A stretch of DNA of 64,000 bases from a bacterium UBP2_UBA2255 (GCA_002347565.1 DDXR01000049.1:42302-106301), one strand, 5' to 3'. Shown: positions 4,691 to 63,508, counted from the first letter of the stretch. Program-made: numbers and translations. Notes: generated by a model not told the origin, from the sequence alone.

Positions 4691-4698
4691 GAGGGACT

Positions 4699-7282: not shown

Positions 7283-7289
7283 TATTGCG

Positions 7290-9793: not shown

Positions 9794-9797
9794 CGCT

Positions 9798-11068: not shown

Positions 11069-11289
11069 TGTGGAAGTGCTCGGTCTGCGATGTGTTTATC
11101 TTACCATGCAACAACATCCCGTTGCTGACAATGCCGACGAGGCGGCTGATCGTGTTCATTCAGGATATCCAGCATCTGCCGGCGAGCGCTGGGTATGGGC
11201 CGCAAAACAGGCGTGTGCTAGAATCATGATCAACTTGTTATTCCCGTTGGTCTTTGCCAAAGGGTAACCGCTTGAATGGATACAGTAAA

Positions 11290-12153: not shown

Positions 12154-12504
12154 CGAACGATTATCCCATCAGCTCAGGAACACCCGGGGAAAGCCATTTA
12201 CGGTCAGTTCGACTTCTCTCGATGACCGGGAATACGCACCCCGAGCGGAGTCGAGAAATGCAGTAACGTGCCATCCTGAATATATGGGATAATCACTCAA
12301 TAGAGATATGCCACCCGCAGGCTATTTCTTCTGTTCGCCGCGGCGGCATCGGATGGTCGGTTTGATGAAGAAGCACGAGAGTTACAACTCAATGAACTAC
12401 AATTCTCTTGATATCCGGTTGCAGGTTATACATAGCGCCACGAAATAGTAATGACAAGCTAGTTCTATAAAAGAAATGCAGTTTAAAAAAGTGATGGTGC
12501 CGGC

Positions 12505-13602
12505 ATGATCGCCTTTGACGCAAGAATGTCAGAGCGTTCTGGTATCGGTTCGTATGTGCGAAACTTGTTGGCACAATTCGCGGCAATGGACCGGCCGCCA
12601 AAGCTGACCGTGATCGGTGACCAAGATATCCACCGCTACTGGCGGCGACCGATTGTCTGCCGTAGCCCGATATACAGTATTCAGGAGCAACTGTCTATTC
12701 CAGTGGTGGCGCATAATTGCAACGTCTTTCATGCGCCGCATTACAACGCCCCGCTGCTGTTCCGCGGCCGTCTGGTCGTGACTATCCACGACCTCAATCA
12801 TCTCACGTTTTATGATGAATTGCCGACCATCGCCCACAAACTGTATGCCCGTCTGATGATGACGTTAGCCGTCCGGCGGGCCGACCACATCATGACGGAT
12901 TCCGAGTGGACACGGCGCGACCTCCTCCGACGATGGCCCGACGCAGCGACGAAGACGGAGGTTGTACATAACGGTATTGATCCACAATTGCGACGGACGA
13001 TCGAACCGGCTGTGCCAGCGAAATATGGCATCACCAAACCATACGTTCTTTATCTGGGACTGCTGAAACGGCATAAAAACATCACGCGACTGATCGAAGC
13101 TTTCCTGGCGGCCCAAGACGAATTGAAGGGTGAGTTCCAATTGGCCATCGCGGGAGATCCGACCAGCGACGATATCGGCCTTCGTGATTTTATCGTGCGA
13201 CGGCGATCATCCGAAATCGTACGGTTGATAGGATTCATTGCGCCGGGTGACATCGCCCCGTTGTATAGCGGCGCGAAGGTGTTCGCCTTCCCATCGCTGG
13301 CCGAGGGCTTCGGCTTGCCGCCGCTGGAGGCGATGGCCTGTGGCACGCCGGTGATCGCCAGCAACGCGAGCTGCCTTCCCGAGGTCCTGGGCGGCGCACC
13401 GCGTTTCTTCGACCCCCGCGACGTGGCTGACATGGCGGCGTCGATCGTGTCCGCCGTCCGGGACGAAGCCTGGCGGTTCGCAGCCATCGAGCGCGGCTAT
13501 CGCACCACGGCCAAGTACCGGTGGGAGGATACGGCGCTGGCCTGCATACGCGCATATAGTGCAGCCGATACGACGGTTGCCAATGGGAGTGGTGGGCGGT
13601 GA
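12505..13602 (+). CDS. glycosyltransferase family 4
   Basis: GT4 C-terminal motif (FPSLAEGFGLPPLEAMACGTPVIASN). Confidence 0.8.
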   Translation: MIAFDARMSERSGIGSYVRNLLAQFAAMDRPPKLTVIGDQDIHRYWRRPIVCRSPIYSIQEQLSIPVVAHNCNVFHAPHYNAPLLFRGRLVVTIHDLNHLTFYDELPTIAHKLYARLMMTLAVRRADHIMTDSEWTRRDLLRRWPDAATKTEVVHNGIDPQLRRTIEPAVPAKYGITKPYVLYLGLLKRHKNITRLIEAFLAAQDELKGEFQLAIAGDPTSDDIGLRDFIVRRRSSEIVRLIGFIAPGDIAPLYSGAKVFAFPSLAEGFGLPPLEAMACGTPVIASNASCLPEVLGGAPRFFDPRDVADMAASIVSAVRDEAWRFAAIERGYRTTAKYRWEDTALACIRAYSAADTTVANGSGGR

Positions 13603-14747
13603 CCCGCGAACGGAACAACCGGGTTTATAAATGGCTGGACGGACACATTGGACCGCCGATCATCGCGATGAAGGCAGCGCTTGATATGCGGCAACGGCCT
13701 TGCGATCAGCGTGTGTCCAACCGATCACCCAGGATCGCATTGGTGAAAACGGAATCCATAGGCGATACGTTGCTGACCGAACCGCTGATTAAAAGCATCA
13801 AACATGTCCATCCCGCGGGTGCGATCACGTACATCTGCATGTCGAACAACGTTGACGCGGTCAGGGGTCTGGATGGGATCGATGAGATCATCATCTTTGA
13901 TCTCGGGGCACCGCTACGATCGCTGTGTCGATTGACGAGGCTGCGACCGTTCGACGTGGTGATTGACTGCGGTTCCTGGGCCAGGATCAACAGCGTGATT
14001 GCAACCACAGTGCCCGCCGCATGCCGTGTGGGCTTCCGTACCGCCAGCATGCACCGGCACTATGCCTACGATATCGTCGTTGACCATGATTCCGGCATCC
14101 ATGAACTTGACAACTATCGCAACCTGCTACGGGCCGCCGGCATCACCCCGCAGCGGTCGGCACCGCGCTATGTCATCGGCCGGCAAGCTGCCGGGGCACC
14201 GGTGTTCCCGTTGCCGTCGCTGGGTGAATACGTCGTCCTGCACATTCATCCCGGCGGCGCCCAGCGGCATCTGAAGTGCTGGCCGGATGCCCAATGGATC
14301 GAACTGGGGAGGCGTCTGATCGGCGCCGGGATCCGCATCTATATTAGCGGCGGTCGCGGCGATGCCGTTGGTGCAGGGCGCATTGCGAACCTGATCGACG
14401 GCGTCCACTGCGCGTCGCTGGCTGGTCAGCTGTCTCTGGATCAAACCGCGCAGCTGATCGCGGGATCCCGTCTGCTGGTCACCGTTGACACCGGTATCAT
14501 GCACCTCGGAGCAGCCGTCGGGGCGAATGTCATCAGTCTACATGGACCGACCTCGCCACGACGGTGGGGCGGCATCGGCCGATCGGTCACGCCAGTTTGC
14601 ACGACGGCCAGCTGTGCCCCATGCATCAACCTGGGCTTCGATTCACCCTGTCGGCACGGCGGCTGCATGGACCTCATCACTGTTGATGCCGTGTTCACTC
14701 AGGCAGCCGAACACCTGAAACGCACCGGACGCGGACGGCCATCGTAG
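13599..14747 (+). CDS. glycosyltransferase family 9 (heptosyltransferase-like)
   Basis: GT9 features: KTESIGDTLLTEPL, ISGGRGD, VTVDTGIMHLGAAVG, LHGPTS; start uncertain (GTG 13599 overlapping, or downstream ATG 13668). Confidence 0.65.
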   Translation: MTRERNNRVYKWLDGHIGPPIIAMKAALDMRQRPCDQRVSNRSPRIALVKTESIGDTLLTEPLIKSIKHVHPAGAITYICMSNNVDAVRGLDGIDEIIIFDLGAPLRSLCRLTRLRPFDVVIDCGSWARINSVIATTVPAACRVGFRTASMHRHYAYDIVVDHDSGIHELDNYRNLLRAAGITPQRSAPRYVIGRQAAGAPVFPLPSLGEYVVLHIHPGGAQRHLKCWPDAQWIELGRRLIGAGIRIYISGGRGDAVGAGRIANLIDGVHCASLAGQLSLDQTAQLIAGSRLLVTVDTGIMHLGAAVGANVISLHGPTSPRRWGGIGRSVTPVCTTASCAPCINLGFDSPCRHGGCMDLITVDAVFTQAAEHLKRTGRGRPS

Positions 14748-47984: not shown

Positions 47985-48014
47985 TTGACAGCACCAGCGG
48001 TTTTACGTTACAAT
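47985..48014 (+). promoter_or_regulatory. sigma70-like promoter TTGACA-18nt-TACAAT upstream of tRNA-Leu
   Basis: TTGACA 47985-47990, TACAAT 48009-48014. Confidence 0.45.
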
Positions 48015-48077: not shown

Positions 48078-48164
48078 GCCGGGATGGTGGAATTTTGGTA
48101 GACACGTACGTTTGAGGTGCGTATGGCGCAAGCCATGTGGGTTCAAGTCCCACTCCCGGCACCA
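48078..48164 (+). tRNA. tRNA-Leu (anticodon GAG), class II with long variable arm
   Basis: Manual fold: 7-bp acceptor GCCGGGA/TCCCGGC, 3-bp D stem, anticodon stem TACGT/GCGTA with loop TTGAGGT (U33, G37), variable arm ATGGC-GCAA-GCCAT, T arm GTGGG-TTCAAGT-CCCAC, discriminator A, encoded CCA. Confidence 0.8.
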
Positions 48165-48270: not shown

Positions 48271-49233
48271 ATGACCTTCGTTGACCTGATCATCGAGCGC
48301 CATTCGTGCGACCACGCGCTGCAGCAGGCGGTCGCCCTTATCAACGCGCGGCGGTACCGCCAGGCCATCCCCATTCTGGATGCGCTCCACCGCCGAGAGC
48401 CGCAGGGCTGCATCCAGAGCAGCGAGGTGGTGCAGTTCTACCTGATCGAGTCGCGCATGGCGCTGGCCCGCCGGGCGGCGCAGCGACGGGCGCTGGCCGA
48501 GGCGATCCGCGAGTACGGCGCGGCCGCGAAGCTGGCGCCGCGGTATGCCGACCTGCGCCATGCGCTGGGGATGATCGAGTACGAGCGGAGGCGCTACGCG
48601 GCAGCCGCCGCCGAGTTCCGCCGGGCGCTGCGGATCAACCCCCGGTACCAGGCGGCGCGCGTCCAGCTCGGGCTGACGATGCTCCGGCAGCGCCGGTACC
48701 GGGCCGGCCTGCGCCTGTTCGCCGGCCTGGCGCGCGACTGCAGCCTGGTCGACCAGGAGCGATACGACCGCGCCGTGGCCGCGGCGCAACGCCGCCGGTA
48801 CCGGGAGGCCGAGGGCGGTTTCGCGGCGGCGTTCCGGTCGAGGCCCGACCGGGGAAGGGCCCTCTGCGCCATGGGCCAGGACGCCTATCGGGAGAGCCGT
48901 TACGACGAGGCCATCCGCCATTTCCGGCAGGCGCAGCGGCTGGCACCGGGCTATGCGGATGTTTACAACAATCTCGGCGCCTGCTACAGCCGGAAAGGGA
49001 ACTGGGGCAGGGCGGCCCGCTGTTTCGCCATGGCGGCATCGCTGGCTCCGCGCTTCACCCGCGCCTGGCTCAACCTGGCGTATGTCTGTGACCGGCTGGG
49101 CGACCGCGAACGGGCGGCGAGGGCGGCCCGTAGCGCCCTGCGGCTGGACCCGGCGAACAAGCTGGCGACCGCCATCCTGCGCCGCGACGGCGCAACCAGG
49201 ACGGCGGCACTGAAGGACCGGCAGCATGGCTGA
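48271..49233 (+). CDS. tetratricopeptide-repeat protein
   Basis: Multiple TPR-like A/R/Y-rich helical repeats. Confidence 0.65.
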   Translation: MTFVDLIIERHSCDHALQQAVALINARRYRQAIPILDALHRREPQGCIQSSEVVQFYLIESRMALARRAAQRRALAEAIREYGAAAKLAPRYADLRHALGMIEYERRRYAAAAAEFRRALRINPRYQAARVQLGLTMLRQRRYRAGLRLFAGLARDCSLVDQERYDRAVAAAQRRRYREAEGGFAAAFRSRPDRGRALCAMGQDAYRESRYDEAIRHFRQAQRLAPGYADVYNNLGACYSRKGNWGRAARCFAMAASLAPRFTRAWLNLAYVCDRLGDRERAARAARSALRLDPANKLATAILRRDGATRTAALKDRQHG

Positions 49234-49882
49234 GTTCAAGGATTACTACGCAGTCCTGGGTGTCGGCCGCACGGCCGCGGAGCAGGAGATCAAGGCCGCC
49301 TACCGGCGGCTGGCGGTGAGGCTCCATCCCGACAAGAACCCGGCCGAGAGCAAGCAGGGATTCGCCAGCAGCCAGTTCCAGGACGTCAACGAGGCCTATC
49401 ATACCCTGGTCGACCGCAGAAAGCGAGACGCCTACAACAAGCAGCTGCTGGCCCGCCAGACCGGCATGTCCGACGGTCACACGTACGAGGCCAACCAGGC
49501 CGAAATGGTGTACCGCCAGGGGGTCAAGGCCTACAACGAACAGAATTTCAAGCGGGCGGTGGAGTACTTCAAGGCCGCAGTCAGGCTCAATCCCAAAAAG
49601 GCGTCCTACTACGACCGGCTGGGGATCGCCATCGTGAAATCCGGCGGATCGATCGAGGACGCCCGCGCCCAGTGCGAAAAGGCCCAGCAGATGGAGATGT
49701 ACAACCCCGAGCACTACCTGTCGATGGGCATCATCTACCAGCTGGCCGGGCTGGGGGACAAGGCCCGGGAGCAGTTCCGGGAGGCCCTCAAGTGGGATCC
49801 CGCCAACGCCGCCGCCAAGCAGCGCCTGGAGCAGCTCGGCCGGAGCAAGAAGGGGTTCTTCGGCAAGATGTTCGGCGGGTGA
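49226..49882 (+). CDS. J-domain (DnaJ-like) protein with TPR-like C-terminal region
   Basis: DYYAVLGV...YRRLAVRLHPDKN J-domain with HPD motif. Confidence 0.8.
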   Translation: MAEFKDYYAVLGVGRTAAEQEIKAAYRRLAVRLHPDKNPAESKQGFASSQFQDVNEAYHTLVDRRKRDAYNKQLLARQTGMSDGHTYEANQAEMVYRQGVKAYNEQNFKRAVEYFKAAVRLNPKKASYYDRLGIAIVKSGGSIEDARAQCEKAQQMEMYNPEHYLSMGIIYQLAGLGDKAREQFREALKWDPANAAAKQRLEQLGRSKKGFFGKMFGG

Positions 49883-50328: not shown

Positions 50329-50673
50329 GTGACGAACCACCAAAATGGATACCACGACCAGGCGTCCGAGATCATCAGGTCGCTGGCCGAGCGCGAGCGC
50401 GAGCTGTCCCGTTCGCTGGAGTCGGCCGAGGCCGAGGCCCGGCAGGCGATCGAGCGGGCCGAGGCGGCTGCGTCCGGCATTCGCGCAGCCGCTGCCGAGT
50501 CCGAGCGCCGCCTGGCGGCCGAGCATGCCGGGAGCTTGGCGGCGCTGGCAGATCAGATCGCCGCTGCCCGGGCGGCCCGGGCCGGGCAGGAGGCCGAGGC
50601 CCTGGCGGCCGCTGCCGCGGCCCGGATGGAGGCGGCCGTGTCGGAAGTCGTCAGGCGCGTGCTGCCGGAGTAG
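50329..50673 (+). CDS. coiled-coil protein, probable A/V-type ATPase peripheral-stalk subunit (G/H-like)
   Basis: 114-aa Ala/Glu/Arg-rich predicted coiled coil immediately upstream of subunit I, matching position of subunit G in Thermus-type operons; GTG start with GAGGAGG RBS. Confidence 0.5.
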   Translation: MTNHQNGYHDQASEIIRSLAERERELSRSLESAEAEARQAIERAEAAASGIRAAAAESERRLAAEHAGSLAALADQIAAARAARAGQEAEALAAAAAARMEAAVSEVVRRVLPE

Positions 50674-50679
50674 CCGCCG

Positions 50680-52578
50680 ATGATCGTCCCCATGCTCAGG
50701 GTGCTGGTGGCTGGTCCCAAACCGCTGATGGCCGCCGTGATCGAGACCATCCAGCGGCAGGGGCGGGTCCACATCGCGGCCGCGCGGGGCCAGGAGCAGG
50801 GCGTTTGCGCCGGCGGGCTGGCCGAGGCCGAGGCCGGGCGCCGGCAATCGGTCGAACGGGCCGCTTCCGAGATCGACGGCCTGCTGGCCCTGCTTGGGTT
50901 CCGGGGAAGGCCGGCACGACAGACCGGGGAACCGGACTGGGGCGCGCTGGAGGCCGGGCTGCGCGAACGCCAGGAGCGCGTGCGGGCGCTGGTGCGGCGG
51001 CGGCTGGAGCTGGAGGATGAGCTGGCGCTGATAGCCAGTTACCAGCAGGCGTTCGAGGCGCTCTCGCCGCTGCTGTCGCGGCTGGAGGGGAGCGCCAGGC
51101 TCCGGGCCTTCGGGTTCATCATCAAGGGGACCGATGCCACGGCTGCCGAACCGCTGCGCCGCGAGCTGGGCAGGGCCACGAGCGGCCGGTGCGAGGTGTT
51201 CGCCCAGGCGCTGGGCGACGGCCGGGTCGCCGTGCTGGCGGCGCACCACGCCGGGGACACCGACCGGGTGCGGGGGTTCTTCGCCAAGCTTGGCGTCAGC
51301 GAGCTGAAATTGCCGTCGACCGTTACCGGCCTGCCGATGGCAGAGGCGGTGCGGCAGCTCAAGGGAAAGCTGCGCGACCTGCCCGGGCAGATCCGGGCCG
51401 CGCAGGAGGATATCGGCAGCCTGGCCGGGCAGTGGGGGCCGGAGCTGGCGGGGCTGCGCCTGCTGGCGGGCGACGTGCTGGCGAGGCTGGCCGTGCGGGC
51501 CCAGGTCGGGGAAAGCCGGTTCACCTTCCTGCTGCAAGGTTACCTGCCGCAGGACGACCTGCCCGGCCTCCGCGACGCCCTGCGCGCCGCCTACCAGGAC
51601 CGGGTCACGGTGCAGACGATAGAGATCGGACACCGCGACGCGGCGCAGGTCCCGGTGATGCTGAAGAACAACCGGCTGGTCAAGCCGTTCGAGATGATGC
51701 TGTCGATCTTCAACCCGCCGCGCTACGGGACTGTCGACCCCACGCCGTTCATCGCGTTCTTCTTCCCGCTGTACTTCGGCTTCATCGTCGGCGACCTCGG
51801 CTACGGCCTGGTGATGCTGGCGCTGGCGCTGGCGCTGCGCTGGAAGCTCGGTCAGCGGCCGTTGGTCAGGCCGCTGACCACCATTTTCGCGCTGTGCGCC
51901 GCCTGGACCGCCGCGTTCGGCGTCGTCTACGGCGAGCTGTTCGGCGACCTGGGCGAGCACATGCACTGGCTGCATCCCATGGCCGACGCGGTCAACCGCA
52001 TGAGGCCGGAGTCGCTGATGCCGCTGTTCTGGTCATCGATCGCCGTCGGCGCGTTCCAGGTGATGGCCGGGTTCGGGATCATGCTCTACCAGGGTCTGAG
52101 GCATCGCGACCGGCACCATATCCTTGAGCCGCTGGCCTTCGTCATCGGCATCGCCGGCGTGGCCGGCTTCGCAGCCTCCTGGATGTTCGGGGTCATCCCG
52201 TCCTCCTTCATGGCGCCGTCGCTGGCCCTGCTGGTCGCCGGCGCCGGCCTGCTTGGGTGGCTGGCCGGCGTGGCAGGGCCGATCGAGATCTTCGGCGCGG
52301 TCGGCAACATTCTGTCCTTCGCCCGTTTGTTCGCGATCGGATTGTCCGCGGCATATCTGGCGTATGCGGCCAACCTGATCGGCCGCACCATCGGCGGCAT
52401 TCCGGGGATTCTGGTGGCGGCCCTGGTAGTGCATCCGCTGTTCTTCGCCCTGGGCCTGATCAGCCCCATCATGCAGTCGTTCCGTCTCCAGGTCGTGGAG
52501 TTCTTCACCAAGTTCAAATACCACGATTATCCCGGCAAACAATACAAACCATTCAAAACCACAGGAGAGACCCCATGA
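50680..52578 (+). CDS. atpI: A/V-type ATP synthase subunit I (a-subunit)
   Basis: ~630 aa: N-terminal hydrophilic coiled-coil half, C-terminal 7-8 TM half. Confidence 0.8.
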   Translation: MIVPMLRVLVAGPKPLMAAVIETIQRQGRVHIAAARGQEQGVCAGGLAEAEAGRRQSVERAASEIDGLLALLGFRGRPARQTGEPDWGALEAGLRERQERVRALVRRRLELEDELALIASYQQAFEALSPLLSRLEGSARLRAFGFIIKGTDATAAEPLRRELGRATSGRCEVFAQALGDGRVAVLAAHHAGDTDRVRGFFAKLGVSELKLPSTVTGLPMAEAVRQLKGKLRDLPGQIRAAQEDIGSLAGQWGPELAGLRLLAGDVLARLAVRAQVGESRFTFLLQGYLPQDDLPGLRDALRAAYQDRVTVQTIEIGHRDAAQVPVMLKNNRLVKPFEMMLSIFNPPRYGTVDPTPFIAFFFPLYFGFIVGDLGYGLVMLALALALRWKLGQRPLVRPLTTIFALCAAWTAAFGVVYGELFGDLGEHMHWLHPMADAVNRMRPESLMPLFWSSIAVGAFQVMAGFGIMLYQGLRHRDRHHILEPLAFVIGIAGVAGFAASWMFGVIPSSFMAPSLALLVAGAGLLGWLAGVAGPIEIFGAVGNILSFARLFAIGLSAAYLAYAANLIGRTIGGIPGILVAALVVHPLFFALGLISPIMQSFRLQVVEFFTKFKYHDYPGKQYKPFKTTGETP

Positions 52579-52919
52579 AGAAGTTCCTGGCGATCGTGAT
52601 GCTGTCCGTCATCGCGATGACCTTCGCCTCGGTGGCGTTGGCCCAGCATGCCGCACCGGCCGCGGAACAGCAGAAGGCGGACTCCCCGGCCAAGCCGCTG
52701 GACAACATCGTGATCTGGAAGGCCCTCGGCGCGGCGCTGGCCATCGGCGCCGCCGCTTTCGCCACGGCCTGGGCCCAGAGCAAGATCGGATCGGCCGCGG
52801 CCGGCGCCATCGCCGAGAAGCCGGAGATCGGCGGCGTGATGATCGTGCTGGAGGCCCTGCCCGAGACCATCATCATCCTGGGCTTCGTGATCGCCATCAT
52901 GATCGTGGGGATGAAGTAG
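52575..52919 (+). CDS. atpK: A/V-type ATP synthase proteolipid subunit K (c-subunit), single hairpin with N-terminal signal-like segment
   Basis: Gly/Ala-rich TM hairpin (GAALAIGAAAFATAWAQSKIGSAAAGAIAEKPE / LEALPETIIILGFVIAIMIVG) with conserved Glu; ATGA overlap with atpI. Confidence 0.75.
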   Translation: MKKFLAIVMLSVIAMTFASVALAQHAAPAAEQQKADSPAKPLDNIVIWKALGAALAIGAAAFATAWAQSKIGSAAAGAIAEKPEIGGVMIVLEALPETIIILGFVIAIMIVGMK

Positions 52920-52968
52920 CCGCTGCGCCGGGCCCCGGAACCGGCGGCATCTGGCACGATCTGACGAT

Positions 52969-53541
52969 ATGAATTCCGAACTACTGAAGGTCATCGAGGC
53001 CGAGGCCGCGGCCGAGCGCCAGCGGATCACGGACGCGGCCCGGGAGCGGGCCGGCGAGATCATCTCCTCGGCCGAGACCGCGGCCCGGCGGCTGCGCGAC
53101 AGCGGCGAGCGCGCCCGGGATGAGCAGGAACGCGCGGTCAGGCTCAAGACGGCCGCGGCCGCGGAACTGGCGGCATCGGCGCTGCGGCTGGAAGCCAAGC
53201 GCCGGGTGCTGGATTCGGTGTTCGACGCCGCCCGTCGGCGTCTGGCGCAGCTGTCCGGCCCGGAGTACCGGCGCGTCCTGAAGTCGCTGATCGCCGAGGC
53301 GGCGGCGGGCTTCGATGGGCAGTTCCGGCTGCGGGTGCGCCGGCAGGACGCCAAGCCGGCCGCCGAGATACTGAAGGAGTTGGGTCTGGAGGCGGAGGCC
53401 GAGGCCGAGGGCGCGGATGACGGCGGCGTGGTCGCGTCCGACCCCCAAGGCCGGATGATGGTCTGCAACAGGTTCGCCGACCGCCTGGAGCGCGCCCGTC
53501 CCGAGCTGCTGCCCGCGCTGTCGCGCATCCTGTGGGGATGA
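52969..53541 (+). CDS. atpE: A/V-type ATP synthase subunit E
   Basis: 190-aa charged helical N-terminus plus C-terminal globular part, operon position. Confidence 0.7.
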   Translation: MNSELLKVIEAEAAAERQRITDAARERAGEIISSAETAARRLRDSGERARDEQERAVRLKTAAAAELAASALRLEAKRRVLDSVFDAARRRLAQLSGPEYRRVLKSLIAEAAAGFDGQFRLRVRRQDAKPAAEILKELGLEAEAEAEGADDGGVVASDPQGRMMVCNRFADRLERARPELLPALSRILWG

Positions 53542-53544
53542 GCG

Positions 53545-54603
53545 ATGCCGTCGGACTACGGGTACATCAACGCCCGGATCAAGGGATGGCACAGCCGCCT
53601 GCTGACGGCCGGCGCAGTGACCGAGATCGCCGACCTGCCTGATTTTCCGGCTTTTCTGAAATGGATGGCCGCCGGTCCGTACGCGGCCGATTGGCAGCTG
53701 GCCCGTGCCCGGTTCGAGGGATTGGAAGCGGTCGAGCAGGCGCTGGAAGCGAATTTCGGCCAGACCACCCGGCGGTTGTTGGCGGTCTCGGACGGCGCCC
53801 CGCGCCGCCTGATCGGGATCATGCTGCGGCGCTGGGACCTGGCCAACCTCAAGACGGTGGTCCGTGGCATCGCCCGCCAGCACGGTTCGCAGGAGATCGC
53901 CCGCAACCTGTGGCCGGCCGGCAACCTGGTGATGGTCCGCCTGAGGGAGCTGGCCCAGCAGCGCGACCTGCGCGGCGTGGCGGACGTGCTGGCCACCTGG
54001 CGCGACCCGCTGGCGCAGCCCCTGATTGAATGCCTGGCAGGGTTCGACCGGGACCACGACCTGGTGCCGGTCGAACTGGCGCTGGACCGGTTCCATTTCC
54101 GCGACTCGCTGCGGCGGCTGCGAGGCCCGGAGAGCAACCGCAGCCTGATGGCGGGCCTGCTGCGGCGGGAGATCGACCTGGCCAATGCCAAAACGGCCAG
54201 GAGGCTGGCCGGTCAGGCCGCGGATCAGGCGCGGGATCCCCGGGCCTATGTGATCGACGGCGGCGAAGTCATCGATGCCGAGGCCGTGGCCGAATTGCTC
54301 GATCCCAGGACGCGCAGCCGCCGGCTGCGTGCCCTGCGGGCATCGCCCTACCACGGCTATCTGGCCGGCACCGGCGACCCGGTCCGGCTGGAGGATGAAC
54401 TCGACCATTCGTTCTGGCGCCACTGCGCCCGGCTGTACCGGGCCCGGCCGCTGGCGATCGACGTGGCCGTCGGCTTCATCTGGCGGAAACAGTACGAGCT
54501 GGTCAACCTGCGCCTGCTGGCCCGGTCCAAGTTCTACGGGCTGCCGCCGGAAGAGATACGCAGCCAGCTGTTCCTGGACGTTGCGGGCGGCCGCTGCGGC
54601 TGA
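53545..54603 (+). CDS. atpC: A/V-type ATP synthase subunit C (d-subunit)
   Basis: YGYINARIKG N-terminus and all-helical ~350 aa like Thermus AtpC. Confidence 0.75.
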   Translation: MPSDYGYINARIKGWHSRLLTAGAVTEIADLPDFPAFLKWMAAGPYAADWQLARARFEGLEAVEQALEANFGQTTRRLLAVSDGAPRRLIGIMLRRWDLANLKTVVRGIARQHGSQEIARNLWPAGNLVMVRLRELAQQRDLRGVADVLATWRDPLAQPLIECLAGFDRDHDLVPVELALDRFHFRDSLRRLRGPESNRSLMAGLLRREIDLANAKTARRLAGQAADQARDPRAYVIDGGEVIDAEAVAELLDPRTRSRRLRALRASPYHGYLAGTGDPVRLEDELDHSFWRHCARLYRARPLAIDVAVGFIWRKQYELVNLRLLARSKFYGLPPEEIRSQLFLDVAGGRCG

Positions 54604-54675: not shown

Positions 54676-55884
54676 ATGAACCGCATCGCACTCGGCGCCA
54701 TTGCCCTGGTCCTGACGGCCGGACTGGCCGGCGCGGCGCCGGAAGCGCCGCCGGCCGCGCCGCCCGGTGAGGCGTCTGCCGCCGGACTGACGGCGGTCGA
54801 CACTCCCAACGACGAGGGGCGGTCGATCACCGTCACCTGGGCCCGGTCGCCCCGGGACATCGGCGATGCCGCCGTGTTCAAGGGCTACCAGATCCTGCGG
54901 GCCGACCACGCCGATGGGCCGTTCGCCGAGGTCGGGTTCGTCATCGGCGGCAAGACGGAGTTCCGCGACAACGTGGCCGAGGGCGCGGCGCACTGGTACC
55001 GCGTGCGCGCCGTGGCCGGCAGCGATTCATCGGAAACGGGGACGGCCGGTCCGGTCCGGGCGTCGGCCCAGTGGTTCGACGCCGGCCGCAGCAACGTGCT
55101 GATCGTGACCGTCCTGCTGGCGTTCCTGATGATCTGGTACATCGAGCGGGCCAAGAAGGGCGAGGAGCTGTTCATCCGGAAGATCCACGGCCTGGACGCC
55201 ATCGACGAGGCGGTGGGGCGGTCCACCGAGCTGGGCAAGCCGGTGCTGTTCTCGTTCGGCCTGGGCGAGATCAAGGACATCGTGACCGTGGCCGCGCTGT
55301 CAATCCTGCGCCAGGTCGCGGTGCGCTGCGCCCAGCACGGCACCGAGCTGCTGGTCCCGAACTGGGACCCGCTGGTGATGGCCGCGGCCCAGGAGACCAT
55401 CCAGCAGGCCTACTCCGAGCCGGGCCGGCCCGACCTGTACAAGGAGGGCAACGTCAGCTTCCTGACCTCGGATCAGTTCGGGTACGCCGCGGGCGTCGAC
55501 GGCATGATGATCCGGCAGAAGCCGGGGGCGGTGTTCTTCATGGGCTACTTCTATGCCGAGGCCCTGCTGATGTCGGAGACCGGCCACTCGGTGGGCGCGA
55601 TCCAGATCGCCGGGACCACGGCGGTCACCCAGCTGCCGTTCTTCATCGCCTCCTGCGACTACACCCTGATCGGCGAGGAGATGCTGGCTGCCAGCTGCTA
55701 CCTGAAGCGCGATCCCCAGCTGCTGGGGTCGATCAAGGGCGAGGATTTCGTCAAGGCCATCCTGATCGTCGGGTTCGCGGCGCTGGCCGTGGTCGGCACC
55801 GCCGGCGCCCTGCTGGCCGGCGCCGGGCGTCCCTGGCTGTCCGGCGTGTTCCAGGCCATCATCCAGTGGTTCGTGACCGCATGA
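54676..55884 (+). CDS. hypothetical bitopic membrane protein: signal peptide, FN3/Ig-like exodomain, TM helix, ~270-aa C-terminal domain
   Basis: Cleavable signal (ALVLTAGLAGAAP), beta-rich segment (SITVTWARSP...HWYRVRAV), TM (VLIVTVLLAFLMIWYI), C-terminal domain ending in second hydrophobic segment; no family recognised. Confidence 0.5.
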   Translation: MNRIALGAIALVLTAGLAGAAPEAPPAAPPGEASAAGLTAVDTPNDEGRSITVTWARSPRDIGDAAVFKGYQILRADHADGPFAEVGFVIGGKTEFRDNVAEGAAHWYRVRAVAGSDSSETGTAGPVRASAQWFDAGRSNVLIVTVLLAFLMIWYIERAKKGEELFIRKIHGLDAIDEAVGRSTELGKPVLFSFGLGEIKDIVTVAALSILRQVAVRCAQHGTELLVPNWDPLVMAAAQETIQQAYSEPGRPDLYKEGNVSFLTSDQFGYAAGVDGMMIRQKPGAVFFMGYFYAEALLMSETGHSVGAIQIAGTTAVTQLPFFIASCDYTLIGEEMLAASCYLKRDPQLLGSIKGEDFVKAILIVGFAALAVVGTAGALLAGAGRPWLSGVFQAIIQWFVTA

Positions 55885-55921
55885 CGCGCGCGTCACTGAT
55901 CGAAATGAAGGAGCGGCGCCC

Positions 55922-56554
55922 ATGAAAAAAGAGATCCCATTGGCCATCACCTTCCTGACCGGCCTGATCATCGTGGTCACGTTCTTCATCCCCCACCAGC
56001 CGCTGGGGACGATGCAGCAGCGGCTGCTGATCTGGTACTCGATCGTGCTGGGGTTCACCATGCTGCTGGGCGTGGACAGCTTGCTGCGCAGCAACCTCAA
56101 GCGGCTGGTGGGGCGCACCCCGGGATGGCCGTACGCCGCAGTGCTGCTCGCCGGGTTCGCGTTCACCCTGGCGGCCGGGATCTACAACTGGGCCACCACC
56201 AGGTCGCTGCTGACCCTGGGGTCGCCGTTCATGTTCGTCTACACCTTCGTGATCGTGCCCCTGCAGGCGACCATGTTCGCGGTGCTGGCGTTCTTCATCG
56301 CGTCGGCCGCCTACCGCGCCTTCCGGGCCCGCACCCTGGAGGCGACCCTGCTGCTGGTCACCGCCGCCATCGTCATGATCGGGCGGGTGCCGGTGGGGGC
56401 CGAGCTGTGGGACAAGCTGCCGGTCCTGGCCGACTGGATCATGGAGGTCCCCCAGATGGCGGCCAAGCGGGGCATCGTCATCGGCGTGGCCCTGGGGACC
56501 ATCGCCATGTCGCTGCGGGTGATCCTGGGCCTGGAACGGACCTACCTGTCATGA
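55922..56554 (+). CDS. hypothetical polytopic membrane protein (~6 TM)
   Basis: Hydrophobicity pattern; no family recognised. Confidence 0.5.
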   Translation: MKKEIPLAITFLTGLIIVVTFFIPHQPLGTMQQRLLIWYSIVLGFTMLLGVDSLLRSNLKRLVGRTPGWPYAAVLLAGFAFTLAAGIYNWATTRSLLTLGSPFMFVYTFVIVPLQATMFAVLAFFIASAAYRAFRARTLEATLLLVTAAIVMIGRVPVGAELWDKLPVLADWIMEVPQMAAKRGIVIGVALGTIAMSLRVILGLERTYLS

Positions 56555-56576
56555 AGCGCAGCAGAGGAGAACGACG

Positions 56577-57398
56577 ATGAGATTCTTCGAGCGGATCGCC
56601 GCCATCGACCGGCGGCTGATCTACCTGGCGCTGGCGCTGTCGGTGCTCATCCCCCTGCTGTTCAAGATGGTGCTCCCGACCCGCGTCTCCGAGCCGGTGC
56701 GGGCCGCCTACCGGTCGATCGATGACCTGCCCGAAGGTTCCGTGGTGATGATCTCGGTCGACTACGACGCCTCGTCGGCGCCGGAGCTGCAGCCCATCTA
56801 TCTCGGCATCCTGCAGCACTGCTTCGCCAAGAAGCTCAAGGTGCTGGTGCTGGGGCAGTGGGTGATGGGGACCCCCTTCGGCGAGCTGGGCTTGGGCCGG
56901 ATCGCGCCGCTGTACGACGCCGTCTACGGCGTCGACTACGTCAACCTGGGGTACCGGCCCGGCTACCGCGCCCAGATGGTGGGGCTGGGCCGCGAGATTC
57001 GCGACTTCTTCGCGGTCGATTCCCGCGGCATCACCCTCGACAGCTTGCCGATGATGGCCGGGGTCCACAATTACAACCAGATCGACCTGCTGGTGGGTCT
57101 CGAGGCCGGCCAGGCCGGCGACGAGTGGATCCAATTCGCCGGCGCCCGCTACGGCGTCGACATCGTGATCGGCGCCACCGGCGTGGTGGCCCCCGACAAG
57201 TTCCATTACCTGCAGGCCCGGCAGATCCGCGGGCTGATCGGCGGCCTGCAGGGCGCGGCCGAGTACGAGACCCTGATCGGCAAGCCGGGCGCCGCCATCG
57301 CCGGCATGGTCGCCCAATCCTGGGCGCACCTCCTGCTGCTGGCGTTCATCGTCCTGGGCAACGTCGGATATTTCGTGATGCGGAGGGCCAAGCCATGA
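56577..57398 (+). CDS. hypothetical membrane-anchored protein (N- and C-terminal TM helices, central soluble domain)
   Basis: TM at residues ~14-32 and ~245-265; no family recognised. Confidence 0.5.
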   Translation: MRFFERIAAIDRRLIYLALALSVLIPLLFKMVLPTRVSEPVRAAYRSIDDLPEGSVVMISVDYDASSAPELQPIYLGILQHCFAKKLKVLVLGQWVMGTPFGELGLGRIAPLYDAVYGVDYVNLGYRPGYRAQMVGLGREIRDFFAVDSRGITLDSLPMMAGVHNYNQIDLLVGLEAGQAGDEWIQFAGARYGVDIVIGATGVVAPDKFHYLQARQIRGLIGGLQGAAEYETLIGKPGAAIAGMVAQSWAHLLLLAFIVLGNVGYFVMRRAKP

Positions 57399-58018
57399 CG
57401 CAGATCATCGGCACCTGGATCGCGGCCGGGCTGACCCTGGCCATCTTCTCCTTCCTCTACAAGGACAACCCGTTCTACAAGGTGGCGGAGCACCTCTACG
57501 TCGGTGTCTCGGCGGCCTACGCCGTGCTGTACGCCTGGGCCAACGACGTCTACCCGATGCTGGTCGAACCGATGTTCCTGGGCCGGGGCGCCGTCACCAC
57601 GGCCGACCGCTGGATCCTGCTGGTGCCGCTGCTGTTCGGCCTGATGATGCTGGCGCGGTGGGTGCCGAGGATCGCCTGGCTGTCGCGCTGGTCCATCGCA
57701 CTGACGGTAGGCATCGCGGCGGGCCTGGGCATCACCGGCCAGATCCAGGGCATTCTGCTGCCGCAGGTGGCCGGCACCCTGGTGCCGCTGACATCGGCCA
57801 ACAACGTTCTGATGGTGGCCGGCGTCATCGCCACGCTGGTGTACTTCTATTTCTCGATCGCCCAGAAGGGCGCGGTCAAAGTGGGCAGCCGGCTGGGCAT
57901 GGTGTTCATCATGGTCGCGTTCGGCGCCTCGTTCGGCTATACGGTGATGGCCAGGATCTCGCTGTTGATCGGGCGCCTGCAGTTCCTGGTGTTCGACTGG
58001 CTCCACGTGGTCAAGTGA
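57398..58018 (+). CDS. hypothetical polytopic membrane protein (~6 TM)
   Basis: ATGA overlap with upstream gene; hydrophobic throughout. Confidence 0.5.
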   Translation, partial: TQIIGTWIAAGLTLAIFSFLYKDNPFYKVAEHLYVGVSAAYAVLYAWANDVYPMLVEPMFLGRGAVTTADRWILLVPLLFGLMMLARWVPRIAWLSRWSIALTVGIAAGLGITGQIQGILLPQVAGTLVPLTSANNVLMVAGVIATLVYFYFSIAQKGAVKVGSRLGMVFIMVAFGASFGYTVMARISLLIGRLQFLVFDWLHVVK

Positions 58019-58052
58019 CGGCCGCCCCAACCGTCGAGAGGAGGATCCTGCG

Positions 58053-58355
58053 ATGAACGACCTGACCGCTGTCAAGGGGGTGCGGGCCTGGGCGGTGTTC
58101 GCCAACGACGCGCCGGTGGAGGGCGAGGCCAAGGGCGAGCTGGGGGACAAGGCGGGCGAGATCGAGCAGTTCTGGGTGAACGCGGCCTCGGTGATCGCCA
58201 GCAACTTCCGGCTGGGCCAGCTGCGCGAGGTGGCCGTGGCCGGCCCCGACCGGCAGGTGCTGATGCTGCTGGCCGGCGACCGGACCGTGGTGTGCGAGGT
58301 CGATCCCGCCGCCGACTGGAAGGCGCTGGCGGGCGAGATCCGGAGGAAGATGTAG
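58053..58355 (+). CDS. small soluble protein, possibly roadblock/LC7-like
   Basis: 100 aa; alternating hydrophobic pattern (VRAWAVFAND..., VLMLLAGDRTVVCEV) reminiscent of roadblock fold; tentative. Confidence 0.4.
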   Translation: MNDLTAVKGVRAWAVFANDAPVEGEAKGELGDKAGEIEQFWVNAASVIASNFRLGQLREVAVAGPDRQVLMLLAGDRTVVCEVDPAADWKALAGEIRRKM

Positions 58356-58356
58356 C

Positions 58357-58905
58357 ATGGCACTTGCAGACGCGATAGCTGCTGGCAGGGTGGCGGGCCT
58401 CAAGGGCGCGTTCCTGGTGCCGGCCGGCGGCGACATCCAGGCGCAGGGCTGCGACCAGTCGGCCGCGACCCCCAGCGCCGAGCTGGCCCGCCAGATCCAG
58501 GACATCGTCGGCCTGCCGACGCTGGACACCGTGTGGCTCGCCGCCGAGGGCGGCATCGCCGGCCTGCGGCTGGCCGCCGGGGCGACGGCCGGGGTGCTGC
58601 TGGGGCCGGACGGGGCGGCCGGGCCCGCCCGCAAGCTGCTGGACGCGTTGCTGGCAGCCCCGGCGGCCGGAACGGGCGGCGGCGACGCCATCAACCAGAT
58701 CCGCAAGGTCGCCACCGAGTACCTCACCGACTTCGCCGAGACCGCGCTGATGATCCAGATCAAGCAGTCGGGTCTGGACGAGAAGAACCCCAGCCCCGAA
58801 AGCCTGGCCAAGCTGGCCGGCGGCCTGGAGAAGGCGGCGCTGATGATCATCGGCCCCTCGCGAGCCAAGGAGATGGGCGAGAGGCTGAAGAAGGCGATAT
58901 CATGA
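58357..58905 (+). CDS. hypothetical soluble protein (Gly/Ala-rich N-terminal half, possibly roadblock-like; helical C-terminus)
   Basis: Starts 2 nt after the preceding stop; no family recognised. Confidence 0.4.
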   Translation: MALADAIAAGRVAGLKGAFLVPAGGDIQAQGCDQSAATPSAELARQIQDIVGLPTLDTVWLAAEGGIAGLRLAAGATAGVLLGPDGAAGPARKLLDALLAAPAAGTGGGDAINQIRKVATEYLTDFAETALMIQIKQSGLDEKNPSPESLAKLAGGLEKAALMIIGPSRAKEMGERLKKAIS

Positions 58906-58998: not shown

Positions 58999-59322
58999 AT
59001 GAATAGGCTGGCCGTCATCACCGACAGCGGCACCGCCACCGGGTTCCGGATGGCGGGGGTGGACACCTTCGAGGTCGCCTCCGAACCGCAGCTCCAGGCC
59101 AAGCTGGCCGAGCTGATCGCGACGGGCGACTACGGGCTGATCGCCGTCAACCAAGACCTGGCGGCGGACCTGGGCGAGGAGGTCGACCGCATCATGAAGA
59201 ATCGCGCCCTGCCGGTGATCCTGCCGTTCCCGGTGCCCAAGGGCGGGACGGTGGAGAGCGGCGAGGCCTACCTCAATAAGCTGGTCAAGGACGCCATCGG
59301 GTTCTACGTCAAGCTGAAGTGA
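58999..59322 (+). CDS. atpF: A/V-type ATP synthase subunit F
   Basis: 107 aa with VITDSGTATGFRMAGV and LPVILPFP motifs matching Thermus/Enterococcus subunit F. Confidence 0.8.
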   Translation: MNRLAVITDSGTATGFRMAGVDTFEVASEPQLQAKLAELIATGDYGLIAVNQDLAADLGEEVDRIMKNRALPVILPFPVPKGGTVESGEAYLNKLVKDAIGFYVKLK

Positions 59323-59336
59323 CCGCGGTGAAATCG

Positions 59337-59807
59337 ATGACGTTCCTGGGATACCTCTTCGTCGCGTGCTGCTTCGCCGGTTGCAGCAAGGACCCGGCCG
59401 CGCCTGGAGCGACCCCCACGTTGGACACTGCCACGCTGACGGATTCCCTGCATGCAGTCGCCATCGGCATGTCGCGCCGGGAATGCCAGATCGACATCCA
59501 GCTGGCGTATTCGATCAATCGTTACCCGCTGATCAAGGCCGGCTCCGACTCGGATATGGTGACCGTCTACCTGCACAACGGCAAGGCGATATCGACCGAC
59601 ACCCCATACAACGCTGGCGCGATCGTCAGGCAGGATTACCGGAACGGTGACCTCCTGGCGAGATCGGTGCAAGGGGGATGGGGCTCGGACACGACGGCAC
59701 ACGTCCTGATGGCTTCCGATACCCTGACCACCATCGACAGTGCCACGGTCGACGTGTGGTGGTGGTTTGATGGCGGCCGCCAGGTGCACCACCGGCTTTT
59801 CCCGTAG
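59337..59807 (+). CDS. hypothetical lipoprotein
   Basis: Signal peptide with FAGCS lipobox; no family recognised; ORF extends to GTG 59319. Confidence 0.45.
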
Positions 59808-59851: not shown

Positions 59852-61594
<1,743 letters not shown>

Positions 61595-61680: not shown

Positions 61681-62595
61681 ATGCGTTTAGTCACCCGCTC
61701 CGATTTCGACGGTTTGATCTGCGGCGTCCTGCTGCAGGAGGCCGGCATCGTCGACTCGTCCCTGTTCGTCCACCCCAAGGACGTCCAGGACGGCAAGGTC
61801 GAGGTCACGGCCAACGACGTGCTGGCCAACGTGCCCTACGCCAAGGGCTGCGGCCTGTGGTTCGACCACCACATGTCCGAGGAGGAGCGCGCCGCCTTCC
61901 CCCACGACTTCAAGGGCGCGTCCCTGCCGGCGAAGAGCTGCGCCCGGGTGATCTACGAGTACTACGGCGGCCGGGAGAAATTCCCGCGGTTCGAGGACAT
62001 GCTCAAGGCGGTGGACAAGTCCGACTCCGGCGGCCTGTCGCTGGAGGAGGTGGCCCAGCCCACCGGCTGGCTGCTGCTGGCCTTCCTGATGGACCCGCGC
62101 ACCGGCCTGGGCCGCTTCTCGGACTACCGCATCAGCAACCTGCAGCTGATGCAGGACCTGATGGAGCGATGCCGCACCATGGCGATCGCCGAGATCCTGG
62201 AGCTGCCCGACGTCACGGAGCGGATCAGGCGCTACCGCGAGTCGGAGTGGCTCTACAAGGAGATGATCAAGAGCAACGCCAAGGTCCACGGCAACGTGCT
62301 GGTGGTGGACCTGCGCAACGTGGAGAACATCGCCACCGGCAACCGCTTCGTGGAGTACGGCATGTTCCCGGCCATCAACATCTCGGTGCGGGTGATGTGG
62401 GGCGTCAAGAAGCAGAACGTGGTGTTCGCCGTGGGACACAGCATCCTCAACCGCACCTCCAAGACCAACGTCGGCTCGCTGATGCTGAAGCACAACGGCG
62501 GCGGCCATCCCAAGGTGGGCACCTGCCAGGTGCCGACCGACCAGGCCGACGCGGTGCTGGCCGAGCTGGTCAGGAAGATGAACGCCGACGGCTGA
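61681..62595 (+). CDS. DHH-family phosphoesterase (DHH + DHHA1-like, GGGH motif)
   Basis: DFDGLICGVLL (DxD), LWFDHHM (DHH), MLKHNGGGHPKVGTCQV (GGGH) motifs. Confidence 0.7.
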   Translation: MRLVTRSDFDGLICGVLLQEAGIVDSSLFVHPKDVQDGKVEVTANDVLANVPYAKGCGLWFDHHMSEEERAAFPHDFKGASLPAKSCARVIYEYYGGREKFPRFEDMLKAVDKSDSGGLSLEEVAQPTGWLLLAFLMDPRTGLGRFSDYRISNLQLMQDLMERCRTMAIAEILELPDVTERIRRYRESEWLYKEMIKSNAKVHGNVLVVDLRNVENIATGNRFVEYGMFPAINISVRVMWGVKKQNVVFAVGHSILNRTSKTNVGSLMLKHNGGGHPKVGTCQVPTDQADAVLAELVRKMNADG

Positions 62596-62607: not shown

Positions 62608-62946
62608 ATGACCGGTCCAGACCACGATACTTTCCGCACACTGTACAAGATCGTCGGGGGCCTCGATAAAAAATTCCCCGGCGGGAACGACCCGTTCCGG
62701 ATCTTGTCCCGCCTGATGGAGGAATCCGGGGAACTGGCGAGCGAGATACACCACTTCGAGGGCCTGAAACGCCATCGCCGGCAGGACCCGCCGGACAAGG
62801 GCCATCTCGCGAAGGAGTGCATGGACATCTTCACCGCGGTGCTCCATATCGCGAAGCACTACGGGATCGAAAAAGAGCTGTCCGCCCGGATCGACAAGCA
62901 CTACCGCATGGTCATTTCCGAGGGATTGGTCGAACCTCTTGAATGA
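62608..62946 (+). CDS. MazG-like nucleotide pyrophosphohydrolase (small all-alpha NTP-PPase)
   Basis: EExGELA.E motif (LMEESGELASEIHHFEG) and downstream acidic helix (LAKECMDIFTAVLHIAKHYGI). Confidence 0.6.
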   Translation: MTGPDHDTFRTLYKIVGGLDKKFPGGNDPFRILSRLMEESGELASEIHHFEGLKRHRRQDPPDKGHLAKECMDIFTAVLHIAKHYGIEKELSARIDKHYRMVISEGLVEPLE

Positions 62947-63061: not shown

Positions 63062-63508
63062 ATGGCACCGTTCAACAAGACCAAGAAATTCGGCAAGCCG
63101 TCCTTCAGCCGGCCGGACAGCCGGGCCCCGCGGAAGTTCGGCGCCGGACCGCGCCCGGCGGGCGGGCCCAAACGCTTCGGCGGGGGGCCGCGCGCAGCGG
63201 GCGCCCGGACGTTCGGCAAGCCGCCCTTCGACAAACAGCTGTTCAAGGCCACCTGCGCCAGCTGCGGCAATCCCTGCGAGGTGCCGTTCCGGCCGTCCGG
63301 CGAGAAGCCGGTCTACTGCCGCGACTGTTTCCGCCGGCAGGAGGGCGACGGCCCGGCACGCCCCGCGTTCCGCCGCGACGACGCGCCCCGGCCGATGCGC
63401 CCCGCGTTCCGCCGTCCCGAGCCGGCCGGCCCCGGCAACCTGGAGAAGGAGCTGGAGCGCATCAACCTCAAGCTGGACCGGATCCTGCGGGCACTAGAAG
63501 GCAATTGA
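63062..63508 (+). CDS. Arg/Gly-rich basic protein with C4 zinc ribbon (CxxC-x17-CxxC)
   Basis: N-terminal repeats FGKP/FGAGPRP/FGGGPRA, CASCGNPCEVPFRPSGEKPVYCRDC zinc ribbon, C-terminal helix. Confidence 0.5.
   Translation: MAPFNKTKKFGKPSFSRPDSRAPRKFGAGPRPAGGPKRFGGGPRAAGARTFGKPPFDKQLFKATCASCGNPCEVPFRPSGEKPVYCRDCFRRQEGDGPARPAFRRDDAPRPMRPAFRRPEPAGPGNLEKELERINLKLDRILRALEGN

Follow-up and report, generated by a model that had tools for sequence, protein, structure and literature searches.

A membrane-protein cassette and two roadblock-like genes within a V-ATPase gene row of Candidatus Edwardsbacteria

Do genes that sit inside a V-type ATPase (V-ATPase) operon also work with that ATPase? The question is raised by a 64,000-nucleotide stretch of bacterial DNA (UBP2_UBA2255; GCA_002347565.1, DDXR01000049.1:42302-106301; hereafter, the window) in which six open reading frames (ORFs), called g1 to g6 here, lie between the genes for V-ATPase subunits C and F. 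The GC content of the contig is ~68%, and the nearest named relatives of the window proteins belong to Candidatus Edwardsbacteria. A previous interpretation, made without database searches (the sequence-only reading), proposed that the six genes encode an ATPase-coupled system of membrane proteins and small roadblock-like proteins. We think it fairly probable that they are an autonomous module, which the ancestor of one Edwardsbacteria clade acquired between V-ATPase C and F. The module also exists without a V-ATPase, so its place in the operon of this clade is no proof that it works with the ATPase; coupling of the two is possible.

The six ORFs are read in one direction at the coordinates that had been proposed for them between C and F, and independent gene calls on the source contig concur, the one correction being that g4 encodes 207 rather than 206 amino acids (aa). 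Over this region, the window is identical to JGI 3300002821 Iso3TCLC_10008090. Because all six have conserved homologues elsewhere, we take them to be real genes. They are closely packed, with spacings along C-g1-g2-g3-g4-g5-g6-F of 72, 37, 22, -4, 34, 1, and 93 bp; the ATG of g4 overlaps the stop codon of g3, and g1 is preceded by a good ribosome-binding site.

The first four genes form a cassette that can be traced through its first member. g1 is a full-length member of DUF6754 (PF20539; E 6e-106, 353.7 bits against a cut-off of 27, profile positions 2-245 of 257), so the earlier statement that none of the six proteins belongs to a nameable family fails for g1, whereas it stands for g2, g3, and g4. 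These three had no match in Pfam, NCBIfam, PADLOC, or PDB sequence profiles, and no profile match to transporter, ABC-2, Rnf/Nqr, or defence families; a Pfam scan of 46 members of each family, taken individually, returned only scattered noise. A scan of one genome per GTDB species with DUF6754 patterns placed the cassette in at least 592 confirmed species from ~9 mostly uncultured phyla. Results at the level of loci (numbered with the prefix L) refer to the best 80 loci from the at least 592 species, plus loci added separately. The 80 come from WOR-3, Zixibacteria, Poribacteria, Ignavibacteria, Eisenbacteria, Stahlbacteria, Coatesbacteria, and Edwardsbacteria, and the cassette was seen separately in Latescibacteria. 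The order g1-g2-g3-g4 on a single strand is kept in 74-81 of 82 loci (by tblastn and all-against-all ORF clustering), the exceptions being truncated contigs. There are 122 copies of g1 across 81 loci, about one-third of which contain tandem arrays of two or three complete cassettes.

An alternative closer to the sequence-only reading is that g1-g6 and a roadblock gene upstream encode accessory or regulatory subunits of the V-ATPase, with the roadblock proteins docking on it in the manner of Ragulator and the membrane proteins joining the Vo sector. We regard this as unlikely, and the distribution of the cassette across so many species is the first point against it. When V-ATPase F, I, C, E, and the highly conserved A were searched with tblastn against the 78 loci outside the Edwardsbacteria clade, there was no match within 10 kb, and neither a V- nor an F-type ATPase gene lies within that distance in any of them. 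The proposal of an ATPase-coupled system is thus not supported by these loci. Beyond the cassette genes themselves, no neighbouring gene family is common to more than 16 loci, and stand-alone cassettes with Pfam-annotated neighbours are found in WOR-3 and Latescibacteria. The boundary is sharp: g1 homologues that are 64% or more identical to that of the window are inside a V-ATPase operon (65% in L111), and one that is 63% identical stands alone (L112). We also note that an isolate filed under Edwardsbacteria (DeMMO3_1; L026:6539-13252) has two tandem stand-alone cassettes, with g1 49% identical to that of the window and no V-ATPase genes nearby; insertion into a V-ATPase operon is therefore not a feature of everything that bears the Edwardsbacteria name.

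The small genes g5 and g6 have relatives elsewhere as well. A metagenome scan with a g6 profile recovered distant homologues that are 26-37% identical to g6 and share its two-domain architecture. In low-GC bacteria, these belong to a conserved trio that consists of a PATAN/DUF4388 gene (Pfam E 4e-11), a gene for a 229-273-aa protein, and the g6-like gene, and that is followed by RuvB; across trio homologues, the g6 architecture and the motif MIxGPxxAKEM are common at 26-45% identity. PATAN adjoins g6-like genes in L023, L024, L041, L054, and L102-L110. In three WOR-3 loci (L023, L024, L054) and one from Stahlbacteria (L041), the genes for PATAN, a g5-like protein (213-227 aa), and a g6-like protein (192 aa) begin 0-2 bp after g4, and no V-ATPase is nearby. 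The trio there is followed on the same strand by genes for two small membrane proteins (123 and 116 aa) and by ExbB-ExbD-ExbD-TonB (L054:13174-18274). The pair of small membrane genes also lies 3' of the g6-like gene in L100.

This recurrence of the cassette together with a roadblock pair bears out the treatment of the six genes as a unit. The order cassette, g5-like, g6-like is common to two lineages, and a V-ATPase is present in only one of them, which also tells against accessory subunits, as does the company of PATAN and RuvB that g6-like genes keep elsewhere. Aligned with hhalign, the g5 family matches the N-domain of the middle protein of the PATAN trio (probability 95.3%, E 2e-8). On the basis of this alignment and the shared architecture of g6, we consider g5 and g6 to be reduced versions of trio genes 2 and 3. 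A tblastn search with two PATAN proteins gave no match in the window or in the clade loci.

Several points weigh against an autonomous module. The block is invariant between C and F throughout the Edwardsbacteria clade: all 10 contigs that span the junction (L001, L002, L007, L087, L088, L092, L094, L095, L096, L111) have the order TPR, DnaJ, roadblock, G, I, c, E, C, g1-g6, F, A, a 304-aa gene, B, D, and F is next after g6 on all 16 contigs that reach past the 3' end of g6 (including L007, L087-L089, L091-L099, and L111). This order persists at 43-52% identity for g6, 38-51% for subunits E and C, and 65-83% for g1-g4. The gaps are short throughout the clade (46-111 bp from C to g1, and 7-98 bp from g6 to F, the lower value in L087), and no terminator-like element was found at either junction, so co-transcription is likely. 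It should be noted that our scans for sigma-70 promoters and terminators found no more sites than in shuffled controls, and that the consensus may not apply to this phylum. We consider it likely that g1-g6 are co-expressed with the V-ATPase in this clade, and given gaps down to 7 bp between g6 and F, selection for co-expression has to be allowed for. Furthermore, orthologues of g5, g6, and the upstream roadblock gene are found only in this operon. Outside the clade, the cassette with the trio is represented by four loci of one lineage, so closely related (flanking genes 65-94% identical) that they count as one independent observation. Finally, the roles in a complex and in docking that we assign below to g2, g3, g4, and the DUF6754 domain are proposals drawn from sequence.

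The invariant placement, the tight spacing, and the junctions free of terminator-like sites would suit accessory subunits. However, V-ATPase subunits and cassette proteins have the same lengths in the clade as elsewhere, the former canonical, with no domains gained or lost, and the sequences give no sign that g1-g6 are physically integrated with the ATPase. The operon also holds other inserts. The gene between F and A varies, A is followed by a conserved DHH-like gene, and B and D have variable genes between them. In L087, an insert between the 304-aa gene and V-ATPase B (L087:13762-18310) encodes GIY-YIG and N6_Mtase/Eco57I proteins and two further ORFs, and resembles a restriction-modification system; this operon thus tolerates foreign insertions.

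What, then, are the small proteins? The AlphaFold2 (AF2) model of g6, made from 34 homologues, has a predicted local distance difference test score (pLDDT) of 83. In this model, residues 1-100 follow the order alpha-beta-beta-alpha-beta-beta-beta-alpha and are succeeded by a disordered linker and a three-helix C-domain (109-181), which is the most conserved part of the protein and carries the motif EYLTDFAETALMIQIKQ...LEKAALMIxGPxxAKEM. A Foldseek search of PDB with the model returned roadblock-family proteins for all of the top 50 matches (E 1e-5 to 8e-4, probability 1.0, target-normalised template-modelling scores of 0.5-0.7), including Streptomyces Roadblock/LC7 (3kye), LAMTOR2, MP1-p14, MglC, MglB, and Asgard roadblocks. 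As modelled, the N-domain of g6 has the roadblock/LC7 fold. That LAMTOR2 is among the best structural matches would favour Ragulator-like docking on the V-ATPase, yet bacterial Roadblock, MglB, and MglC structures are matched equally well, so there is nothing Ragulator-specific in the fold. By sequence, g6 had no match in Pfam or NCBIfam at E up to 1 and none in PADLOC, a PDB sequence profile search gave nothing relevant, and hhalign of its N-domain against the roadblock family of the window gave a probability of 1%. Sequence methods evidently under-call this fold. In 5.8 billion proteins, homologues of g6 make up only 36 clusters, and those with a name all belong to Edwardsbacteria.

The sequence-only reading had seen a roadblock-like pattern in both small proteins. 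Structure prediction agrees for g6; for g5 the likeness comes from weak, in-register profile matches and from its family, whose members pair with g6-like proteins. Orthologues of g5 are always exactly 100 aa long, and an exhaustive phmmer search found three relatives among 1.84 billion representatives. g5 itself has no Pfam, NCBIfam, PADLOC, or PDB-profile match, and one orthologue weakly matches Pfam Robl_LC7 (E 0.0036). Against the roadblock family of the window, hhalign gave a weak alignment that is nevertheless in register (P 0.0014, 66 columns, probability 17%). From these profile comparisons, g5 is probably roadblock-like.

The gene immediately upstream of the V-ATPase subunits is, as had been stated, a roadblock gene. 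Its product matches Myxococcus xanthus MglC (7ct3) over residues 6-113 (phmmer against PDB, E 2.5e-11) and a Thorarchaeota roadblock protein (E 6e-4), although its score for Pfam Robl_LC7 (PF03259; E 1.3e-4, 22.1 bits) is 0.9 below the cut-off of 23; several orthologues have a precomputed PF03259 match. The orthologues are confined to the clade, forming 33 clusters in 5.8 billion proteins, with all named ones from Edwardsbacteria. MglC is an "orphan" paralogue of the GTPase-activating protein MglB that has lost MglA binding and works via MglB and RomR (PMC4719450, PMC7949163). A 2014 survey counted 749 MglB homologues, 328 of them with no coupled GTPase, and of these none had then been characterised (PMC4316618); MglC has since become the characterised exception (PMC4719450). 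No ORF in the window combines Walker A with NKxD, and a small GTPase was not found there. Walker A motifs alone occur in four ORFs, namely a 134-aa minus-strand ORF, a 229-aa ORF, the FN3 domain of g1, and V-ATPase A. The P-loop motif in g1 (GFVIGGKT) was dismissed as a chance match, being inside the periplasmic FN3 domain. An operon with a recognised MglC-like protein, the modelled g6, and the probable g5, in a window with no small GTPase found, is the remaining point in favour of regulatory subunits.

The topologies of g1-g4 are predictions from hydropathy and charge, and those of g2-g4 agree with the sequence-only reading (six transmembrane segments in g2, two in g3, and five to six in g4). 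Averaged over 122 homologues, g1 begins with a signal peptide and a periplasmic FN3 domain (~31-140), followed by a transmembrane segment (141-158), the cytoplasmic, non-hydrophobic DUF6754 domain (~160-357, ~200 aa), and a second transmembrane segment (358-380); the FN3 domain itself, unlike the topology, is shown. The cytoplasmic domain is very strongly conserved, with g1 identities of 53-60% between phyla and dozens of invariant polar residues (R168, R182, T184, E185, E295, E301, Q310, D328, E334, E335, D357). Its most conserved part, residues 266-353, has a pLDDT of only 25-41 when modelled as a monomer from a 71-sequence alignment, as might be expected if this region needs partners in order to fold. 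In g2, averaged hydropathy gives six segments, and the motif ATMFxLLAFFxASAAYRAFRAR is conserved. g3 is predicted by hydropathy and the positive-inside rule to have an N-in transmembrane segment (12-30), a periplasmic domain of ~215 aa, and a second segment (248-268). g4, with its five to six segments, has the motifs SFLYKDNPFYKxAEH and FGASFGYTVM. Paralogy of g1 with g3 and of g2 with g4, suspected by eye, was rejected: BLASTP found no homology, and hhalign probabilities were <4% with alignments of 112-122 sequences. No relationship between any of the four families could be detected.

How might such a module work? Given their strict co-occurrence, fixed order, and overlapping stops and starts, together with the unfolded region of the g1 monomer, g1-g4 would form a hetero-oligomeric complex of the inner membrane. 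The polytopic g2 and g4 would be its membrane core, g3 would place an alpha/beta domain in the periplasm, and g1 would present its FN3 domain on that side and its extremely conserved domain in the cytoplasm. The core cassette encodes no nucleoside triphosphatase (NTPase), and we infer that the core is probably passive, driven by an ion gradient, or served by lineage-specific partners, rather than driven by ATP. By analogy with roadblock proteins, g5 and g6 may build a dimeric platform that docks at the cytoplasmic side, where the g1 domain is the most plausible site and the conserved g6 C-domain would make the contact, and that regulates or localises the complex. Such a module would need no V-ATPase to work.

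A second alternative is that the cassette is an ion-coupled transporter or mechanotransducer that uses the Na+ or H+ gradient of the V-ATPase, the two being co-regulated and making no contact. The absence of an encoded NTPase, the two polytopic subunits with domains on either side of the membrane, and the ion-motive partners in two lineages (the V-ATPase here, ExbB-ExbD-ExbD-TonB in WOR-3/Stahlbacteria) all fit this idea, to which we nevertheless give only a small chance. There is no transporter-family homology in Pfam, NCBIfam, or PDB; judged by conservation in g2 and g4, no invariant acidic residue lies within any predicted transmembrane segment; g2 and g4 gave negative or weak results when tested for internal repeats; and neither partner is near most of the cassettes. 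A partner of a different kind occurs in 16 loci. These loci (L021, L022, L027, L040, L043, L046-L048, L050, L052, L058, L063-L065, L070, L080) come from Zixibacteria, Eisenbacteria, Coatesbacteria, and Ignavibacteria, and have two extra genes immediately 5' of the cassette or, where cassettes are in tandem, between them (e.g., L043:6656-9656). One encodes a 614-aa GlmL-family actin-fold (ASKHA) ATPase (Pfam MutL PF13941, E 3e-129), and the product of the other (375 aa) weakly matches the RnfC_N barrel-sandwich. These two genes, which the window lacks, may supply the cassette with an ATPase partner. Another cluster of neighbours, of 496 aa, was set aside as probably an antisense shadow ORF, judged by its arginine-rich translation. 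Taken together, the lineage-specific partners (V-ATPase, ExbBD-TonB with PATAN, and the GlmL-like ATPase) hint at an envelope-spanning machine that is energy-coupled or spatially regulated.

A related idea limits the coupling to the clade: there, the V-ATPase would incorporate, or serve as a dock for, the cassette and the roadblock-type proteins (g5, g6, and the MglC-like one), and the roadblock platform would tether a new four-subunit membrane machine to the pump or control how the pump is assembled. The chances of this are slim, in our judgement; if true, it would be a bacterial counterpart of Ragulator and the v-ATPase, and would give GTPase-less "orphan" roadblocks their first assigned role. 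That g5 and g6 regulate the V-ATPase only, and merely adjoin an unrelated cassette that landed in the operon, is very improbable, for although their orthologues occur solely here and F directly follows g6, their homologues in WOR-3/Stahlbacteria lie 3' of the cassette without a V-ATPase and in the same g4-g5-g6 order.

Table 1. Features of the window discussed in the text (positions counted from its first letter).
Feature	Position	Strand	Basis and remarks
Low-GC island	4666-14747		GC 0.49-0.59 vs ~0.68
134-aa ORF	8501-8905	-	Walker A
229-aa ORF	at 35433		Walker A
Sigma-70-like site	47985-48014		TTGACA, 18 nt, TACAAT
tRNA-Leu(GAG)	48078-48164
TPR-repeat protein	48271-49233	+	Pfam TPR_2, TPR_1, and related; first gene of clade-conserved unit
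J-domain (DnaJ) and TPR protein	49226-49882	+	Precomputed Pfam DnaJ, TPR; position kept in clade, 59-62% identity
MglC-like roadblock/LC7 protein, 125 aa	49941-50318	+	Pfam Robl_LC7 below cut-off; phmmer PDB MglC
V/A-type ATPase block (G-like, I, c/K, E, C/AC39)	50329-54603	+
V-ATPase subunit G-like	50329-50673	+	Pfam V-ATPase_G_2
V-ATPase subunit I	50680-52578	+	Precomputed V_ATPase_I
V-ATPase subunit c/K, 114 aa	52575-52919	+	Precomputed ATP-synt_C
V-ATPase subunit E	52969-53541	+	Precomputed vATP-synt_E
V-ATPase subunit C/AC39	53545-54603	+	Precomputed vATP-synt_AC39
g1, 402 aa	54676-55884	+	Signal peptide, FN3, transmembrane segment, DUF6754, transmembrane segment
g2, 210 aa, predicted six-segment membrane protein	55922-56554	+	Hydropathy, conservation; always after g1
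g3, 273 aa, predicted transmembrane segment, periplasmic domain, transmembrane segment	56577-57398	+	Hydropathy, positive-inside rule; always third
g4, 207 aa, predicted ~5-6 transmembrane segments	57395-58018	+	Hydropathy; always fourth
g5, 100 aa, soluble, probably roadblock-like	58053-58355	+	Homology to N-domain of trio middle protein
g6, 182 aa, modelled roadblock-fold N-domain and C-domain	58357-58905	+	AF2 model, Foldseek
V-ATPase subunit F	58999-59322	+	Pfam ATP-synt_F, E 4.5e-20
162-aa lipoprotein-like ORF	59319-59807	+	Lipobox-like N-terminus (FAGC)
V-ATPase catalytic subunit A	59852-61594	+	Precomputed Pfam ATP-synt_ab families
304-aa DHH/DHHA1-like protein	61681-62595	+	DHH and GGGH motifs; Pfam DHHA1, E 0.003
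112-aa MazG-like ORF	62608-62946	+
148-aa zinc-finger protein	63062-63508	+	zf_Tbcl_2

The genes around g1-g6 form a compact plus-strand row that runs from the TPR gene to the end of the window in the order of Table 1. V-ATPase B and D are located past that end, as seen in L001, L088, and L111. Homologues of the TPR gene are found at the equivalent position in L087, L088, L092, L094, and L095. Subunit c has a hydrophobic, signal-like N-terminal extension ahead of its two-helix hairpin, and a PET motif at the presumed ion-binding glutamate. The 162-aa ORF overlaps the end of F and precedes A; its position is variable in the clade, being vacant in L087, L095, and L111 and taken by a 302-aa ORF in L088. 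The 304-aa DHH-like gene, in contrast, lies between A and B in every clade member, and its product is 77-79% identical within the clade, above subunits E and C. It is followed in the window by the MazG-like and zinc-finger ORFs. The sole strong sigma-70-like site in the 16-kb region precedes the tRNA-Leu(GAG) gene, just upstream of the TPR-DnaJ-roadblock-V-ATPase row. Well apart from these genes, the low-GC island is a surface-polysaccharide cluster (Wzz/GNVR, Wzy-type polymerase/ligase, Polysacc_synt flippase, GT1, GT2, GT4, GT9, methyltransferase) that was probably acquired horizontally.

The g1-g4 cassette is among the more widespread uncharacterised membrane systems documented here, and it often occurs as three tandem copies. 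Pfam has no model for three of its four families, and none of the four has a solved relative by PDB profiles; literature searches on DUF6754, PF20539, and roadblock genes in V-type ATPase operons found nothing. Its link to the roadblock pair and PATAN is a first handle on its biology, and suggests a role for "orphan" MglB-like proteins. If its place in the operon reflects real coupling, this would be an unexpected parallel in bacteria to the roadblock-fold scaffolds of the eukaryotic v-ATPase; if not, the locus warns that operons in these lineages can be mosaic in their membership.

How does the module compare with known systems? In eukaryotes, Ragulator/LAMTOR, a pentamer that has a lipidated LAMTOR1 scaffold and Rag GTPases as partners, docks on the v-ATPase. 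The likeness here is that a roadblock-fold protein is encoded with a V-type ATPase, and that the best structural matches of g6 include LAMTOR2 and MP1-p14. The differences are that no Rag-like GTPase gene was found in the 64 kb (a LAMTOR1-like protein was not searched for) and that the V-ATPase link is confined to one clade. As an analogy, the Ragulator parallel would thus extend to the shared roadblock fold and no further.

For the cassette, the systems to compare would be GldF/GldG-type ABC-2 systems, RnfA/E with RnfG, and NqrD/E with NqrC, a possible likeness in size and topology only (two ~210-aa proteins with six transmembrane segments and a membrane-anchored periplasmic subunit). Unlike them, the cassette has no ABC-2, ABC_transp_aux, or Rnf-Nqr profile similarity and no ABC ATPase or redox subunits, and no paralogy is detectable between its g2 and g4. 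g1 belongs to DUF6754; its three partner families have no Pfam model. At the level of sequence and profile, the cassette as a system resembles nothing characterised, and its newness is that of sequence and profile negatives; at the level of folds, g2, g3, g4, and DUF6754 may still be remotely related to a known transporter or enzyme.

The small proteins have better-known relatives, the roadblock/LC7 superfamily (MglB and MglC of M. xanthus, CvnB of the Streptomyces conservons, and Asgard proteins), and the N-domain of g6 is modelled with the same fold (matches to 3kye, 7ct3, and 6hjm). Like MglC and the 328 "orphan" MglB homologues, the roadblock proteins of the window are not encoded beside a GTPase gene (PMC4316618; PMC4719450), whereas an MglA-MglB type module pairs the GTPase-activating protein with a Ras-like GTPase, no gene for which was found within a few genes in the window. 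Their genomic partner is a membrane cassette instead of MglA or a conservon. Gene neighbourhoods of PATAN (DUF4388) and MglB-like proteins go back to Makarova et al. 2006, as far as PMC4316618 relays that work; distant homologues of g5 and g6 form a trio with PATAN, whereas the window has no PATAN and g5 is cut to 100 aa. Unlike recognised superfamily members, g5 and g6 score below every Pfam Robl_LC7 sequence threshold, g5 does not have the long N-terminal helix, and g6 has an added, highly conserved three-helix C-domain. The fold family of the roadblock parts is a known one; within it they are new and divergent, and the C-domain is new as well.

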